Shown in pieces: positions 4,587 through 59,378 of a stretch of DNA of 64,000 bases. Below the pieces are notes generated by a model that saw only the letters and a list, made by a program, of their open reading frames with translations, made no database searches and was not told where the DNA came from. Numbering within the stretch: position 1 is the first letter of the stretch; the number at the start of each line of letters is the position of its first letter. A program made the translations under genes and the position numbers. The DNA lies in assembly GCA_963598415.1 (NCBI GenBank), contig CAVBUH010000058.1:16421-80420 (forward strand), read 5' to 3'. Source of the DNA: Selenomonadaceae bacterium (lineage in GTDB: Bacteria; Bacillota; Clostridia; Oscillospirales; CAG-272).

Positions 4587-5717
4587 ATGAATATTGATGA
4601 TAAGGTGGCGTTGTGTCGCTGCGAAGAATATGACGTACGGAAAATTTTTGAGTTTCTGAAAGGAATGTCAGAACAGCTTGGAATTACGCCAAACGAAATT
4701 AAAGATAAGACTGTTATTATAAAACCCAATCTTTTGCTTGCCTTTCCTCCTGAAAAAGCGGCCACCACGCATCCTGATGTTGTCTCTGCGGCGGCGCTTC
4801 TTTTCAGTCAGTGGGGAGCCCGGAGGGTTACGATTGCGGAAAGTCCTGGAGGAATCTATAACGAAAAGAATTTGGAGCGAGTGTACACGGTAACCGGAAT
4901 GAAGGAGGCTGCCGCTCAAAGCGGAGCATACCTGAACCGTGAGCTCGGATGGACGGAATTTTCCACACCGAATGGAAAGGTATCCAAAACCGTTAATCTA
5001 ATTAATCCCGTTTACGAAGCTGACGTTATTGTGAACATATGCAAAATGAAAACGCATTCTCTTGCCGTTATGACAGGAGCTGCGAAAAATCTTTTCGGTG
5101 TGATTCCCGGAATAATGAAGTTTGAGATGCATGCAAGATTCAAAAAACCGGAGGATTTCTTTTCTATGGTTATTGATCTTGATGAACAGCTTGCAAAATC
5201 TCACAATGTAATCCACATATGCGATGGAATAATGGGTATGGAGGGGGACGGACCGTCAGGCGGAATCCCCAAAAAAGCGGGAGTGTTACTGATGAGCCGA
5301 AATCCCTTTAATCTTGACTGCGTTTCGGCTCGTATCATGAGACTTGACGATAGAGTCAGGTTTATTTCTCTTGCCGCGGAAAGAGGACTATGCCCGAAAG
5401 TTTTCGATAAAATCAGTATTATCGGTAGTCGTCCGGAGGAAATTGAGTGCGGGAGCTTTGCACTTCCCGATGCGGCGAAAGGCAAAAAGTTTGATCTGAT
5501 ACCACCGTTTCTTCAGCCGCGCCCTGTTATAGACGGAAAAGTATGCAGAGGCTGCGGCATGTGCGTGAAAAGCTGTCCTCAGCATACGATCTCCGTAAAA
5601 AACGGCAAAGCAAAAATTAATCATGATAGGTGTATCAGATGCTATTGCTGTCAGGAGCTTTGTACTTTTCGCGCAGTAAAGATTAAAAAAAGCTTTATAT
5701 ACAGGCTGGTGGAATGA
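4587..5717 (+). CDS. DUF362 domain protein with C-terminal 2x[4Fe-4S] ferredoxin domain
   Basis: VIIKPNLL...THPDVV core typical of DUF362. C-terminal CRGCGMCVKSCP and CIRCYCCQELC cluster motifs. Confidence 0.75.
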   Translation: MNIDDKVALCRCEEYDVRKIFEFLKGMSEQLGITPNEIKDKTVIIKPNLLLAFPPEKAATTHPDVVSAAALLFSQWGARRVTIAESPGGIYNEKNLERVYTVTGMKEAAAQSGAYLNRELGWTEFSTPNGKVSKTVNLINPVYEADVIVNICKMKTHSLAVMTGAAKNLFGVIPGIMKFEMHARFKKPEDFFSMVIDLDEQLAKSHNVIHICDGIMGMEGDGPSGGIPKKAGVLLMSRNPFNLDCVSARIMRLDDRVRFISLAAERGLCPKVFDKISIIGSRPEEIECGSFALPDAAKGKKFDLIPPFLQPRPVIDGKVCRGCGMCVKSCPQHTISVKNGKAKINHDRCIRCYCCQELCTFRAVKIKKSFIYRLVE

Positions 5718-6583
5718 TGAATATTGATATGAAAAAAACTGTTATCGAATCGGCGTATGCAAAAATTAATCTGTGGCTTGAGATTCTCGGTAGACGGGAA
5801 GACGGCTATCACAATATCAGAAGCATCATGCAGACGGTCTCTCTTTGCGATACTGTTACCGTAAGGCTTACCGAGAGGGAAGTGGGCATGACTTGTTCGG
5901 ACAGTACTCTTTCCTGCGGACGGGATAACCTTTGTGTAAGAGCGGCAGAGATTTTTATTCAAGAGTGCGGCGGTGGCTTCGGTGTATCCCTTCATCTTGA
6001 GAAAAATATTCCGAGAGAAGCCGGGCTTGGCGGGGGAAGCGCTGACGCTGCAGCGGTTCTGAGAGCCTTGAATACTCTTTGCGGAGAGTTTTTTGATACG
6101 GATTTTCTGAGAAAGATGGGAAAAAAACTCGGCGCGGATGTACCATTTTGCATATCCGGCGGAACGGCTCTTGCAGAAGGGGTTGGAGAGATTCTCTCTG
6201 AATATTATTCCATCCCCGATTGTTTTATTGTAGTAAGCGGGGGTGTCGGTCATATTTCCACGCCGGAAGCTTATCGCAGAATTGATTCTGTGCCCGATGT
6301 CTGCGGAAGAGATTTTGGTTCTTTTCAAGAGGCAATGAAAACAGGAGACCTTGCCGTAATCGGCAAAAACCTTTACAACCGTTTTGAGGATGCGGTTCCG
6401 GAGGCTTTGGAAATAAAGGCAATTTTGCTGTCAAGCGGCGCGGCGGGAACTCTTATGAGCGGGTCGGGCTCTGCCGTATTTGGACTTTTTGATTCCTTGA
6501 AAAAAGTCGACATGGCTTGTGCTTTGCTTGAGAAGGCAGGACTTTCATCTTATATCTGTCATCCGATAAAACAGTATCACTGA
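5714..6583 (+). CDS. ispE: 4-diphosphocytidyl-2-C-methyl-D-erythritol kinase
   Basis: AYAKINLWLEILGRREDGYHNI N-terminus and GHMP kinase motif PREAGLGGGSADAAAVL. ATGA overlap with the upstream gene. Confidence 0.9.
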   Translation: MMNIDMKKTVIESAYAKINLWLEILGRREDGYHNIRSIMQTVSLCDTVTVRLTEREVGMTCSDSTLSCGRDNLCVRAAEIFIQECGGGFGVSLHLEKNIPREAGLGGGSADAAAVLRALNTLCGEFFDTDFLRKMGKKLGADVPFCISGGTALAEGVGEILSEYYSIPDCFIVVSGGVGHISTPEAYRRIDSVPDVCGRDFGSFQEAMKTGDLAVIGKNLYNRFEDAVPEALEIKAILLSSGAAGTLMSGSGSAVFGLFDSLKKVDMACALLEKAGLSSYICHPIKQYH

Positions 6584-6594
6584 ATCAGGCTGTT

Positions 6595-6773
6595 TCGAGG
6601 CAATACCGCACAATTCCAAAAGGCAGAGATGTGCAGTCATATTTTTCATCAAACGATACCAATTAGGGGTAGAAGCGGCTCCTTTGCCGACGGAATTTTT
6701 GAAGTGTGACGGTATACGGACAAGCAGATATGCCGTTAAGGCACAAGCTGTGAACATGGCGGTGTTGCCTTAA
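6595..6773 (+). mobile_element. MITE-like palindromic repeat, family 1, subfamily 2 (copy A)
   Basis: 179 bp. Ends GAGGCAATACCGC ... GCGGTGTTGCCTTAA, with the shared core (TTTTTCATCAAACGATACCAATTAGGGG ... TTTGCCGACGGAATTTTTGAAG). Starts 11 nt after the ispE stop. Confidence 0.85.
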
Positions 6774-27850: not shown

Positions 27851-28030
27851 TTAAGGCAACACCGCCGGGTGCACGGTTAATGCCTTTGTTGCACATTTGC
27901 TTGCGTCTTTTCCGTCAACCTTCACCAATTTCATCGGCAGAGGAGTCACGCTTTCCTCCTCAATTGGTATTGTCTGACGAAAAATCCGGCGGCGCAACTG
28001 TACAACAATCATTGTGCGGTATTACCTTAA
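27851..28030 (-). mobile_element. MITE-like palindromic repeat, family 1, subfamily 1 (copy B)
   Basis: 180 bp, TTAAGGCAACACCGCC ... GTGCGGTATTACCTTAA, with the core CCTCCTCAATTGGTATTGTCTGACGAAAAATCC. Confidence 0.9.
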
Positions 28031-35610: not shown

Positions 35611-35790
35611 TTAAGGCAATACCGCACAATGATTGTTGAGCAGTAGCGCCGCCGGATTTTTCGTCAGACGATATAAATTGAGGAAGCAAGAGTAACTCCT
35701 CTGTCGACGAAATTTGTGAAGTATGACGGAAAAGCTGCAAGCAAATGTGCAATAAAGGCGTTAGCTGTGTACCCGGCGGTATTGCCTTCA
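35611..35790 (+). mobile_element. MITE-like palindromic repeat, family 1, subfamily 1 (copy C)
   Basis: 180 bp, TTAAGGCAATACCGCACAATGATTG ... CCCGGCGGTATTGCCTTCA. Begins at the nucleotide after the GH2 stop codon. Confidence 0.9.
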
Positions 35791-39369: not shown

Positions 39370-39549
39370 TTAAGGTAACACCGTATAATTCACTGCTTGC
39401 GCCTTGACAGCATATCTGCTTGTCCATTTTCTGTTACACTTCACAAATTTTGTCGGCTGAGGGAACCGTTCTTGTTTCCTCAATTGGTATCGTTGATAAA
39501 AAATATGCCTGCGCATTTGTACCGTCAGAACCCAGCGGCATTGCCTTAA
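39370..39549 (-). mobile_element. MITE-like palindromic repeat, family 1, subfamily 2 (copy E)
   Basis: 180 bp, TTAAGGTAACACCG ... CAGCGGCATTGCCTTAA, with the core CACTTCACAAATTTTGTCGG...CCTCAATTGGTATCG. Confidence 0.88.
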
Positions 39550-46057: not shown

Positions 46058-47189
46058 ACAAAGTATGAGAAATAATCTTTTTCACGGCGAGAAAAATACT
46101 TTTTGCCGAATAGCTGCAAATTTCACCGTATCTGCCGTTATCAAGTTGTTCTGTTGCTGATAAATAGTTGGTACATACGATTGGTTTGCGGAGCAGCTTT
46201 GCTTCCTCTACGGTGATCGGCATCCCTTCATATTTTGACGGAAGAATAAAGATATCGCACTTTTTTATATATGGATAAGGATTATCAACATGTCCGAGCA
46301 AAATAAGCATATCCGACACCCCGAGCCGCTTTGCCTTTCTGCATAATTTCATGGTATCCTTTTTGCTTCCCGTTCCGGCGATATACCATCTTGCTTTGAT
46401 ATTCTCTTGTTTCAGAAGATAAAGTACATTCGGAATGAGAAAATAGCCTTTTTGGCGACAGATACGCATAACCGACAGAAGCCGGAGACCGGTGTATTTT
46501 TGATCCGGAAATTCAGTATTTTTTTCAGAGCTGCAAAGGATTTCTTTTTCGGGAAGAGAATTGAGTAATGTAAAAAATTTTGATTCAAGCTCCGGAAAAT
46601 GTTCTTTCAGAAGCTTAGTACAGGAACGTGATACAGAAATGACTGCGGTGCATCTGTCAAAGTAATAACGATATATTCGATCGTCTCTTTTGGGATGAAA
46701 ATAGTCGAAATGCAGCCAGGCAATTTTTTGCTTTGCATTCACCTTCTCGCTCATGTAGAACATGGTTCGGTCTCCCCAAAAAGCCAGACAGATATCATAT
46801 TCTGTATTGATTTCAAACTCTCTGTCAAAAGGCAGTATTGCTTGTTTCATAAGCAGAATCCAGAGCTTCTGATACATATAGCATGAAAACGGCGCGGTAA
46901 TGAAGAAATGTATATGATTGAACAGGAATTTTTTCTTTTGCGGAAAATCGAGCTGCCGGATTGTTTTAAAAACATTTCTTTTAGAAAGAGAGAACAGAGA
47001 GCCATTTTTTATCGGCTTCAGTATCTGTATATCAGAAGGGAGCTGTCCAGCAAGAGCGCCTCCGCTCTCAGCCAGGACGAGGTCGATATTATATTTTTCC
47101 CTGTCTATTGTCTCAAGGAAGGAAAGAAGCGCTTTTTCTGTTCCTCCCATATTCATTTTGATGCCGCAAATAAGAATTTTCTTTTTCAT
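46056..47189 (-). CDS. Glycosyltransferase family 4 (GT-B)
   Basis: N-terminal ICGIKMNMGGTEKAL and the C-terminal motif ILPSKYEGMPITVEEAKLLRKPIV. Confidence 0.85.
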   Translation of the reverse strand: MKKKILICGIKMNMGGTEKALLSFLETIDREKYNIDLVLAESGGALAGQLPSDIQILKPIKNGSLFSLSKRNVFKTIRQLDFPQKKKFLFNHIHFFITAPFSCYMYQKLWILLMKQAILPFDREFEINTEYDICLAFWGDRTMFYMSEKVNAKQKIAWLHFDYFHPKRDDRIYRYYFDRCTAVISVSRSCTKLLKEHFPELESKFFTLLNSLPEKEILCSSEKNTEFPDQKYTGLRLLSVMRICRQKGYFLIPNVLYLLKQENIKARWYIAGTGSKKDTMKLCRKAKRLGVSDMLILLGHVDNPYPYIKKCDIFILPSKYEGMPITVEEAKLLRKPIVCTNYLSATEQLDNGRYGEICSYSAKSIFLAVKKIISHTL

Positions 47190-47328: not shown

Positions 47329-47649
47329 TTAAGGCAATACCGCCGGGTTCACGGCTTTCTTTAAGGATGCATCTTCAGGGCAATTTTCCGCCGTGCTTCA
47401 GGGTACCTCTAAAAATTCACGTCTCAAATCCGGTTCGATCCGGGTTCCGTCGTTCGTTTAAAAAATTCTTGGCAGATGGATACGCTGTCTGCGAAATTTT
47501 TGTTTGGACTGACGATTGCCGTTTGTGAATAAGAGATACCCTTCACAAATTTTGCCGACAGAGAAGTCGCTCTTGCCTCCTCTATTGGTATTGTCTGACG
47601 AAAAATCCAACTGCGTATCTGTACCGTCGAGCCCGGCGGATTGCCTTAC
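47329..47649 (-). mobile_element. MITE-like palindromic repeat, family 1, subfamily 2 (copy F), interrupted by a nested element
   Basis: Ends TTAAGGCAATACCGCCGGGTTCACGG ... CCCGGCGGATTGCCTTAC. 321 bp long because of a 141 bp insertion. Confidence 0.88.
47401..47541. mobile_element. Nested 141 bp MITE-like element, family 2
   Basis: Termini GGGTACCTCTAAAAATTCAC ... GTGAATAAGAGATACCC form an imperfect inverted repeat. Flanked by a direct TTCA (47397-47400 and 47542-47545), which is single in uninterrupted family 1 copies. Confidence 0.7.
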
Positions 47650-47758
47650 TTTTTGTCTGCATCAACCAAAAGATAATACATTATAAGAAAAAGACTTGCA
47701 CCAATAAAGCGGCAAGTCTTTTGTTAAATGTGAATACATCCGTACAGACGGGTAATTG

Positions 47759-48514
47759 TCAATTTTTTTCAGCTCTGCAAATGAAAAATATTCTTTCTGT
47801 CTCATTTCCGACGGGATTCATCTGAAATCCGTCGGAAATCGAAATAATATGGAATCCGGAGTCGTTAAGAAAACTTGAAAGTGTATCTGTACGCCAGCAT
47901 CTTTCCCGCTGAAGCTCATCATAACGCCGATATAAACCGGTATTGAGGTCTTCGGCAAAGAGGGAAAGCTCAAAATCGCACAGCCCGGTTTTTCTGTCAA
48001 AATGGTTTTTCCAGCCGCAGTATACGCCGGGAGCTTCCATCACATATTGATTTTCTCCGTATACGTTTTTGAACTTATAGGGAGAATTGACATCAAAAAT
48101 AAAGAGTCCGTTGGGATCAAGATAATTATGCACAAGAGAAAAGCATTTTTTCAGACCTTGCTTGCCGGTGATATAATTGATACTGTCAAGACAGCAGACA
48201 ACGGCGGCAACTGTTCCGTAAAGCTCAAAGAAGCGCATATCCTGACAAAGCCAAAGAACCTTGTCTCCGTCCGGTTTTTTTCTTCCGCAATCAAGCATTT
48301 CGGGAGAAACGTCTATGGCTATCATATCATATCCGCGTTTTAAAAGAGGAAGCGTAATATTTCCTGTTCCGCAGGCAAGATCAAGAACCAGCGAGCCGCT
48401 CGGTATGCCTCCTTCTCTGAATCGGGCGACAAGAAAATCAGCCCATTGCTCATAATCGATATGAGCGTTGAGTTTGTCGTAATAGGAGGCAAGAGAGGAA
48501 TATTGGAGATTCAT
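47759..48514 (-). CDS. Class I SAM-dependent methyltransferase
   Basis: Motif I VLDLACGTGNITLPL. Start set to ATG 48514 (MNLQYSSLASYYD), which forms an ATGA overlap with the upstream gene. Confidence 0.85.
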   Translation of the reverse strand: MNLQYSSLASYYDKLNAHIDYEQWADFLVARFREGGIPSGSLVLDLACGTGNITLPLLKRGYDMIAIDVSPEMLDCGRKKPDGDKVLWLCQDMRFFELYGTVAAVVCCLDSINYITGKQGLKKCFSLVHNYLDPNGLFIFDVNSPYKFKNVYGENQYVMEAPGVYCGWKNHFDRKTGLCDFELSLFAEDLNTGLYRRYDELQRERCWRTDTLSSFLNDSGFHIISISDGFQMNPVGNETERIFFICRAEKN

Positions 48515-48804
48515 TTTTTTCTGTCGATTCTTCTGAGAATTTCGGCATAGCCGTCGCTGCCGTATTTCAGGCAACGGTTGACACGGCTTATAGTGGCGGT
48601 GCTGAGTCCTGTCTTTTCCGAAATGTCCGAATATATATGATTATTATTGAGCATTCTTGCGGCAGTGAGTCTTTTTGCCATTTCGCGTATCTCGGATACT
48701 GTGCACAGATCCTCAAAAAACGCATAGCATTCATCTATATCATTCAGTGATAGAATGGCTTTGAATAAACAATCGGTTTGCTCATCCCTGTATTTTTCTG
48801 ACAT
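48511..48804 (-). CDS. YerC/YecD family TrpR-related protein
   Basis: ECYAFFEDLCTVSEIREMAKRL...GLSTATISRVNRCLKYGSDGY is the family signature. Start is probably ATG 48804. Confidence 0.82.
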   Translation of the reverse strand: MSEKYRDEQTDCLFKAILSLNDIDECYAFFEDLCTVSEIREMAKRLTAARMLNNNHIYSDISEKTGLSTATISRVNRCLKYGSDGYAEILRRIDRKK

Positions 48805-48967: not shown

Positions 48968-49145
48968 TTAAGGCAATACCGCACAATGATTGTTGTGCAG
49001 TTGCGCCGCCAGATTTTTCGTCAGACAATACCAATTGAGGAGGCAAGAGTGCTCCTCTGCCGACGAACTTGTGAAGTATGACGGGAAAGATGCAAGCAAA
49101 TGCGAAGCATAGGCGTTTGCCGTGCACTCAGCGGTATTGTCTTAA
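48968..49145 (+). mobile_element. MITE-like palindromic repeat, family 1, subfamily 1 (copy G)
   Basis: 178 bp, TTAAGGCAATACCGCACAATGATTG ... CAGCGGTATTGTCTTAA. Ends 33 nt before the start codon at 49179. Confidence 0.9.
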
Positions 49146-54972: not shown

Positions 54973-55150
54973 TTAAGGCAATACTGCTGGGTTCACGGCT
55001 TGCGCCTTGATGGCATATCCGCTTGTTCATTTCTCGCCACACTTCACAAATTTTGTCGGCAGAGGAGCTAATCTTGCCTTTTCAATTTGTATCGTTTGAC
55101 AACACATGACTGCGCATCTGTACCATCAGAACCCGGCGGTATTACCTTAA
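54973..55150 (-). mobile_element. MITE-like palindromic repeat, family 1, subfamily 2 (copy H)
   Basis: 178 bp, TTAAGGCAATACTGCTGGGTTCACGG ... GAACCCGGCGGTATTACCTTAA. Starts 6 nt after the GDPD stop. Confidence 0.9.
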
Positions 55151-59202: not shown

Positions 59203-59308
59203 GACAATACCGTACCATGATTGTTGTGCAGTTGCGCCGCTGGATTTTTCGTCAGACAATACAAGTTGAGGAGGCAAGAGTGACTCCTCTGCCGACGAAA
59301 TTTGTGAA
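58894..59308 (+). repeat. 415 bp direct repeat, copy 2
   Basis: See copy 1. The identical antisense ORFs in the supplied track (56523-56768 and 58908-59153) are consistent with this. Confidence 0.95.
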
Positions 59309-59378
59309 ATATGACGGAAAAGATGCAAGCAAATGCGCAATAAAGGCGTTAGCTATGTACCCGGCGGTATTGCCTTAA
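59199..59378 (+). mobile_element. MITE-like palindromic repeat, family 1, subfamily 1 (copy J), intact
   Basis: 180 bp, TTAAGACAATACCGTACC ... CCCGGCGGTATTGCCTTAA. Confidence 0.9.

Follow-up and report, generated by a model that had tools for sequence, protein, structure and literature searches.

At positions 47329-47649 of the 64,000-nucleotide stretch of DNA analyzed here (the window), a 141-bp segment interrupts a copy of a short repeat of a family that we call fam1, which raises the questions of whether this segment is a mobile element in its own right, what could have mobilized it, and how the nested arrangement came about. A sequence-only reading had proposed that the segment is an independent non-autonomous transposable element that jumped into the fam1 repeat, that TTCA/TGAA inside the fam1 core may be a preferred target, and that the nesting gives a relative age order. 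Based on our analysis, we assign a probability of roughly 0.9 to the explanation that the segment is a decayed MITE of a second family (fam2) inside a fam1 MITE, that the two families are served by two IS5-family transposases, and, less securely, that the resulting composite has been copied.

Architecture of the nested locus

We re-read the sequence of the locus and found that the insert (47401-47541, 141 bp) has imperfect inverted ends, is bounded by TTCA on either side, and breaks up the fam1 repeat; the coordinates, inverted ends and duplicated TTCA given in the sequence-only reading were right to the base, as was the single TTCA of an uninterrupted copy at 54973-55150. The host repeat begins after TTAA at 47329 with GGCAATACCGCC, and its left arm runs to ...GCCGTGCTTCA at 47400; the insert starts with GGGTACCTCTAAAAATTCAC and finishes with ...GTGAATAAGAGATACCC; the host then picks up at 47542 with TTCACAAATTTTGCC and closes with ...GGATTGCC, followed by TTAC to 47649 (Table 1). 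A repeat search paired both the insert ends (47400-47410 with 47532-47542, 11 nt, 91% complementary) and the arms of the host (47330-47354 with 47624-47648).

Two minus-strand genes, encoding a methyltransferase and a glycosyltransferase, flank the composite and are separated by a spacer of 569 bp. Directly downstream of the methyltransferase gene, at 47690-47725 on the minus strand, a G+C-rich hairpin is followed by a T-run; this feature, which was read by eye and not listed by the terminator-like consensus scan, is probably the gene's own terminator. An Rfam scan of the window at the gathering threshold returned only a tRNA, with no RNA family over the element, and no ORF of at least 60 aa was found inside the fam2 element. 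Elsewhere in the window there are at least nine more copies or fragments of fam1, such as those at 6627-6773, 27851-28030, 35663-35788, 39389-39549, 48968-49145, 54973-55150, and 59251-59378.

Table 1. Features of the composite element and its surroundings (window coordinates)
Feature	Position	Strand	Basis
Group 1 glycosyltransferase gene, start 140 bp from element	46059-47189	-	
Outer left flank TTAA of fam1 host (left target duplication)	47329-47332	+	sequence; TTAA typical of fam1 flanks; matching IS with 4-bp flanking duplications
Fam1 left arm, subfamily C, model 5-74, from inverted repeat GGCAATACCGCCGGG to TTCA	47333-47400	+	nhmmer match C58:63749-63820 (model 1-74)
TTCA, left copy of target-site duplication of fam2 insertion	47397-47400	+	sequence; comparison with uninterrupted copy; family-wide duplications
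Nested fam2 MITE copy, 141 bp, deletion variant of 161-bp consensus	47401-47541	+	BLAST; copy alignment; profile search; consensus comparison
Fam2 left terminal inverted repeat GGGTACCTCTAAAAATTCA	47401-47419	+	family consensus; 14-17/19 positions match IS5-family ends in related genomes
Fam1/fam2 common core, approximate, about fam2 consensus 43-115, far end shortened by first 10-bp deletion	47443-47515	+	consensus-consensus alignment; profile cross-matches; cross-genus alignment
Terminator-like hairpin in fam2 core, 8-bp stem, 4 G-C pairs, T-rich tail	47472-47502 (hairpin 47472-47492)	+	consensus scan, pattern match only
Fam2 right terminal inverted repeat, cut by 10-bp deletion, GTGAATAAGAGATACCC	47525-47541	+	sequence; consensus comparison
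TTCA, right copy of target-site duplication	47542-47545	+	sequence; comparison with uninterrupted copy
Fam1 right arm, model about 71-176, ends in inverted repeat ...CCCGGCGGATTGCC	47542-47645	+	nhmmer match C58:63958-64068 (model 67-179)
Outer right flank TTAC, decayed copy of TTAA duplication	47646-47649	+	sequence; composite flank comparison
Methyltransferase gene	47762-48574	-	
Uninterrupted fam1 copy (paralogous empty site), single TTCA, reads ...CACTTCACAAATTTTG	54973-55150	+	sequence; BLAST

No orthologous empty site was found among same-genus genomes, where only the methyltransferase gene is conserved, the neighbourhood differs, and synteny is lost. Searches of 18 other genomes from the genus with the composite as query detected neither fam1 nor fam2. 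These genomes span 1.3-2.6 Mb, compared with 3.88 Mb for the genome that contains the window (G000; 98% complete, 2.9% contamination), and MITEs explain only about 0.1 Mb of this size excess.

Two repeat families across the genome

Across G000 (3.88 Mb, 43.8% G+C, 210 contigs of at least 2 kb, shorter contigs being excluded from the assembly), BLAST returned 124 matches to the 141-bp insert. Alignment of 106 copies yielded a 161-bp fam2 consensus with 19-nt terminal inverted repeats and ends GGGCACCTCTAAAAATTCA ... TGAATTTTTAGAGATACCC, and an nhmmer profile search of the genome identified 167 non-overlapping fam2 loci, about 100 of them full length; the absence of any other copy in the genome, which would have spoken against the sequence-only reading, is therefore not what we see. 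Identity between the window copy and the consensus is 86.5%; the copy lacks consensus positions 116-125 and 140-149, and its right inverted repeat looks imperfect because of the loss of these two 10-bp stretches near the 3' end.

We then compared the four bases on each side of strict full-length fam2 copies projected to the profile ends (n = 79). An exact 4-bp duplication was present in 39 of these copies, compared with a mean of 7.4 and a maximum of 15 for shuffled pairings, and 62 of the 79 carried a duplication with at most one mismatch (shuffles, 32). The signal is confined to the element boundary: in an earlier 139-hit set with both strands counted, duplications occurred in 68 copies at offset 0 and in 0-1 copies at offsets of ±1 to 3, and no fam2 duplications of 5-8 bp, or at shifted boundaries, were seen. 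Left flanks show that the fam2 target is T(T/A)AA-like (TTAA 18, TAAA 12, ATAA 8, TGAA 7, TTAT 6, TTCA 3). Free copies insert at TTCA (3 left flanks) as well as at TGAA (7), in both orientations, and about 4% of left flanks are TTCA. The TTCA pair at 47397-47400 and 47542-47545 is thus a genuine, if uncommon, 4-bp target-site duplication. An 11-nt inverted repeat with a 4-bp repeat at one locus is weak evidence taken alone; the family-wide evidence is decisive.

Fam2-like MITEs with the same ends are also present in five other genera, where their 4-bp duplications, compared by eye, are mostly exact; one related genome (G022) holds about 35 such copies. Fam2 has the hallmarks of a MITE, namely terminal inverted repeats, a fixed 4-bp duplication, a small non-coding multi-copy unit, and paralogous empty sites. 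We additionally considered a palindrome-associated element (PATE) of the IS200/IS605 type, because fam1/fam2 junctions run in one orientation only (see below). PATEs have neither inverted termini nor a duplication and insert 3' of a fixed tetranucleotide in one orientation; the inverted termini of fam2, and its variable duplications that match within each copy, rule out this assignment.

For fam1, we used a profile of 180 positions that includes the TTAA flanks, the unit itself being 172 bp plus these flanks. The genome search returned 583 loci (about 79 kb), 327 of them full length and uninterrupted, and TTAA flanked 205 of 251 full copies on the left and 212 of 251 on the right (82-84%). Fam1 falls into three subfamilies that differ mainly at positions 35-60, with uninterrupted copies (n = 337) distributed as 205 B, 95 A, 13 C, and 24 unclassified. 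The 13 C copies are of the host's own subfamily, and every uninterrupted copy that was inspected reads through a single TTCA. Fam1 is found in at least five other genera. The combined total for fam1 and fam2 is about 750 loci, which cover about 101 kb (2.6% of the genome).

These counts bear on the alternative that the 141 bp belonged to a longer original fam1 and were deleted from the shorter copies. Some common interior ancestry is real, as the two families have a homologous core of about 80 bp, but about 100 full-length copies of fam2 are found by themselves at unrelated loci, with their own inverted repeats and 4-bp duplications and no fam1 flanks, the edges of the insert are exactly fam2 termini and the duplicated TTCA, and the insert is missing from 327 fam1 copies in this genome as well as from fam1 in other genera. 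An ancestral segment is accordingly very improbable. With its own termini and 4-bp duplication, many free copies that have duplications of their own, and hundreds of insert-free fam1 copies, the insert is an independent non-autonomous transposable element, as had been proposed.

Candidate partner transposases

IS5-group elements are about 1.2 kb long, generate a 4-bp duplication, and use a YTAR-type target. Searching G000 for the transposase domain DDE_Tnp_1 (PF01609), we found only two matches, an IS4-like fragment and a partial fam1-type element at the end of contig C113. The latter (G000:C113:~5400-6361, locus L090) is the sole fam1-type IS5-family element found in the assembly; the contig end cuts it short, and two frameshifts, one of them in an A-run, disrupt its transposase frame. 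Its right end reads ...CATTGTACGGTGTTGCC followed by TTAA and matches the terminus of fam1 subfamily B at 15 of 17 positions. Relatives of this element came to 80 loci from public genomes, mostly Oscillospiraceae, Ruminococcus-like, and other Clostridia, the closest (97% amino-acid identity) being in Huintestinicola butyrica and an uncultured Ruminococcus MAG. Elsewhere, fam1-type IS elements are about 1.14 kb long, encode a transposase of 325 aa in the L013 type, end in GGCAAYACCGCACAAW, and have 4-bp flanking duplications such as TAAA, CTAA, TTAG, and ATAG.

For fam2, no transposase of the matching type was found in G000 at E <= 1e-30 in contigs of 2 kb or more, and paired fam2 ends 0.3-6 kb apart enclosed only ordinary genes, with no transposase gene between them. 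We therefore extended the hunt for a fam2 partner to 400 genomes of the same bacterial family, using a distantly related transposase as query. This led to L139 (L139:1268-2538, from G295:C6), a 1255-bp IS5-family element with ends GGTAACCTCTAAAAATTCA / GGGAACCTCTAAAAATTGA and a 335-aa transposase ORF. A search with the L139 protein uncovered a second complete fam2-type element of 1254 bp (L145), and six more loci have single fam2-type ends, including a partial copy (L148) in G007, which belongs to the same genus as the window. At fam2-type loci, 14-17 of 19 IS end positions match the fam2 terminus. The longer, transposase-bearing relative that the sequence-only reading proposed to look for exists as 1.25-kb IS5-family elements in related genomes, although none was found in this assembly. 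Fam2 MITEs make 4-bp duplications, yet L139, with the same ends, has identical 8-bp direct repeats (TAAACAAT) on its two sides; L145 is flanked by TACA/TGCA (3/4 matching), and these two are the only complete copies recovered.

Two further candidates were set aside. A 1058-bp transposase contig in G022, which drew attention because of the many fam2-like copies in that genome, lacks fam2 ends and has no overlapping contigs, and the fam2-like ends at G022 contig starts all lead into MITEs. The IS4-like DDE fragment in G000 (C189:1-2600) has ends unrelated to fam1 or fam2; it adjoins a gene resembling an IS256 or mutator-type transposase, whose ends are also unrelated to either family.

Both transposase types carry the DUF772 and DDE_Tnp_1 domains and exceed the threshold of the NCBIfam IS5-family model NF033581, the fam2-type proteins at 282-293 bits against a cut-off of 140, and the two types are 29% identical to one another. 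Judged from these ends and domains, fam1 and fam2 are MITEs of IS5-family elements that appear to be served by two different transposases. Fam2 would be mobilized by an IS5-family DDE transposase making 4-bp staggered cuts at T(T/A)AA-like sites, and fam1 by a different IS5-family transposase targeting TTAA. We infer mobilization within this genome from the related elements, because no fam2-type transposase gene was found here and the fam1-type copy is frameshifted and truncated; neither family need be active now. IS copies may also have gone unassembled in this fragmented draft, in which contig ends often lie in repeats.

A recurrent junction between fam1 and fam2

Contact between the two families is frequent, with 40 of the 167 fam2 loci touching a fam1 match. 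The junction seen in the window, in which fam1 position 74 meets fam2 position 1, occurs 19 times and always in the same orientation (19/19, binomial p = 4e-6), and 8 of the 19 junctions belong to complete composites, which are scattered over unrelated loci and have outer flanks resembling TTAA. Fam2 also abuts a fam1 terminus in about 15-20 cases, in both orientations, as is expected because fam2 can use the TTAA that flanks every fam1 copy.

Fam1/fam2-type repeats are a main cause of assembly breaks: 223 of about 420 G000 contig ends resemble other contig ends, and many G022 contigs start 30-50 bp inside a fam2-like MITE. A short-read mis-join across two abundant repeats was for this reason weighed as a source of the composite in the window, the draft being fragmented, more than half of its contig ends resembling other contig ends, and a related genome breaking inside these same repeats. 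The composite, however, sits deep in a long contig with unique flanks, both of its junctions fall precisely at element ends and show a matching 4-bp duplication, and the same arrangement recurs, with diverged sequences, in seven further complete composites at separate loci, so that an assembly artefact is scarcely credible.

The repeated junction could in principle reflect either many insertions at one site or the copying of few. If TTCA at fam1 positions 71-74 were a preferred, orientation-specific fam2 target, as the sequence-only reading had suggested for TTCA/TGAA in the fam1 core, each of the 19 junctions would be an independent insertion. Several observations fit such repeated targeting: the hosts come from at least three fam1 subfamilies, three interrupted hosts being subfamily A or B; the 10-bp indel of fam2 is polymorphic among nested copies; and the two families meet often, as in the 15-20 cases of fam2 abutting fam1 termini. 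Nested fam2 copies are likewise no closer to one another than to free copies (0.76 vs. 0.80), with free copies as their nearest neighbours, and arm and insert distances are uncorrelated (r = -0.22, Mantel 1697/2000), although clustering and distance tests of this kind decide nothing about unit copying, since no signal is expected under star-like divergence. Set against these observations, all 19 junctions run in one orientation, whereas free fam2 copies use TTCA/TGAA both ways and usually insert at a near-palindromic target; about 4% of left flanks are TTCA, which makes it a minor target; and subfamily C, which accounts for 13 of 337 uninterrupted fam1 copies (about 4%), makes up 13 of 24 interrupted ones (54%; Fisher p = 8e-11). 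Moreover, no junction-spanning composite was seen in 400 same-family genomes, a weak test in which two candidates were scored per genome. Tabulation of flanks and junctions thus does not bear out the proposed target preference, and we regard a hot spot as unlikely.

The subfamily C excess, the single orientation, the minor TTCA target, and the about equal divergence of composite arms and inserts (mean pairwise identity 0.73 and 0.75, respectively) favour copying as a unit. We consider it probable that one or a few founding insertions took place and that the composite then multiplied by means of its fam1 ends, which were still intact. The points against unit copying can be accommodated only if the copies recombined afterwards or if fam2 independently hit this site, in this orientation, at least 2-3 times; recombination among hundreds of copies could explain all of these points, and in one composite the left arm is indeed of B type and the right arm of A/C type. 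The founding insertion or insertions would have been at the TTCA of fam1 positions 71-74, and the composite, its fam1 ends intact, would have been copied as a unit to new TTAA sites by a fam1-type transposase, so that the 19 same-orientation junctions would be products of composite copying. The copy in the window would be one old member of this composite lineage. Because the composite was probably copied as a unit, the relative age order read from the locus at 47329-47649 is not secure: the nesting there probably predates the arrival of the composite copy.

Nesting also extends to a third level at G000:C2:3517-3932, G000:C69:3419-3755, and G000:C8:2574-2930, where a further fam1 lies inside the fam2 part of a composite. 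In the C2 nest, the fam2 halves overlap by four model positions (78-81), consistent with a 4-bp duplication.

A core common to both families

Consensus-to-consensus alignment pairs fam1 positions 53-137 with fam2 positions 43-122, a stretch of about 80 bp, whereas the termini of the two families differ. The core of the fam2 profile also matches full-length fam1 copies in related genomes. The core is absent from both fam1-type and fam2-type IS elements, and none was found outside fam1 and fam2 in this genome. When nine fam2-type sequences representing six genera were aligned, the arms of the core, ...CCGTCATTCGTCACAAAAATTC... and ...GAATTTTTGTTTAGACTGAC..., proved nearly invariant, and variation lay in the apical hairpin that they enclose, where some of the changes are compensatory. 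This hairpin is the one that the consensus scan picked out as terminator-like. Across genera, the core shows conservation comparable to that of the transposase-binding ends.

Several composites carry deletions that end at homologous core positions of fam2 and fam1. Chimeric elements made up of a fam1 left arm, a fam2 5' part, and a fam1 right part occur at C13:21627-21823, C34:38293-38500, C15:1852-2057, and C43:183743-183981 of G000. The placement of the breakpoints suggests that the chimeras arose by deletion through recombination between the common cores, and several composites would have been shortened in this way, through cores of about 80 bp, after their spread.

One further interpretation, which we hold to be distinctly doubtful, is that the core is a selected functional module that moves between MITE families with different termini. 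Candidate roles for such a module include a bidirectional terminator-like hairpin, a host-factor site, and a transposition-enhancing site. If this were true, nested composites and core recombination would be the intermediates that give the core new ends and hence a new transposase.

Discussion

In several respects fam1 and fam2 resemble known IS5-family MITEs. Their terminal inverted repeats start with GG and they have a 4-bp duplication at TTAA-like sites; at 160-180 bp, without an ORF, they occur in tens to hundreds of intergenic copies; and their ends are common to elements that encode DUF772 plus DDE_Tnp_1 transposases (GGGNACCTCTAAAAATTC ends being proposed for the fam2 partner). They differ in that their interior is not a deletion derivative of an IS, as neither IS type contains the core, in that their combined copy number is very high for a bacterium, and in that this assembly yielded no intact partner.

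Composite or mosaic repeats are known from other bacteria, such as the BIMEs of enterobacteria and, reportedly, the BrickBuilt or MITE-with-minisatellite elements of Porphyromonas gingivalis. By description, the fam1/fam2 composites are like these in having recurring modules in fixed order and orientation at many loci, and unlike them in that each module is a complete MITE with its own ends and duplication, the insertion origin being still visible.

The small pneumococcal repeats RUP, BOX, and SPRITE cluster and insert into one another, and SPRITE carries a terminator-like hairpin, according to a review (PMC10969869, citing Croucher et al.). Fam1 and fam2 are likewise small, non-autonomous, and nested, with a terminator-like hairpin in the fam2 core as in SPRITE; they differ in a host from a different phylum-level group, another transposase family, and unrelated sequences, as well as in a nested pair that itself appears multiplied and in two families that have a homologous core. 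Cases of small repeats landing inside each other in bacteria have been described before (PMC10969869). Nested insertions are textbook evidence that transposons move, and the one seen here is thus a real but ordinary event.

What is new are the families themselves, our literature search having returned no description of either: two previously undescribed IS5-type MITE families that are unusually abundant in one gut Clostridia genome. They use what appear to be different transposases and yet have a conserved interior in common, and the nested pair seems to have turned into a unit that amplifies in its own right. This genome is therefore a good natural case for the birth of MITEs and the swapping of their ends, for short-read assembly breaks in genomes from gut metagenomes, and for whether terminator-like cores affect neighbouring genes.
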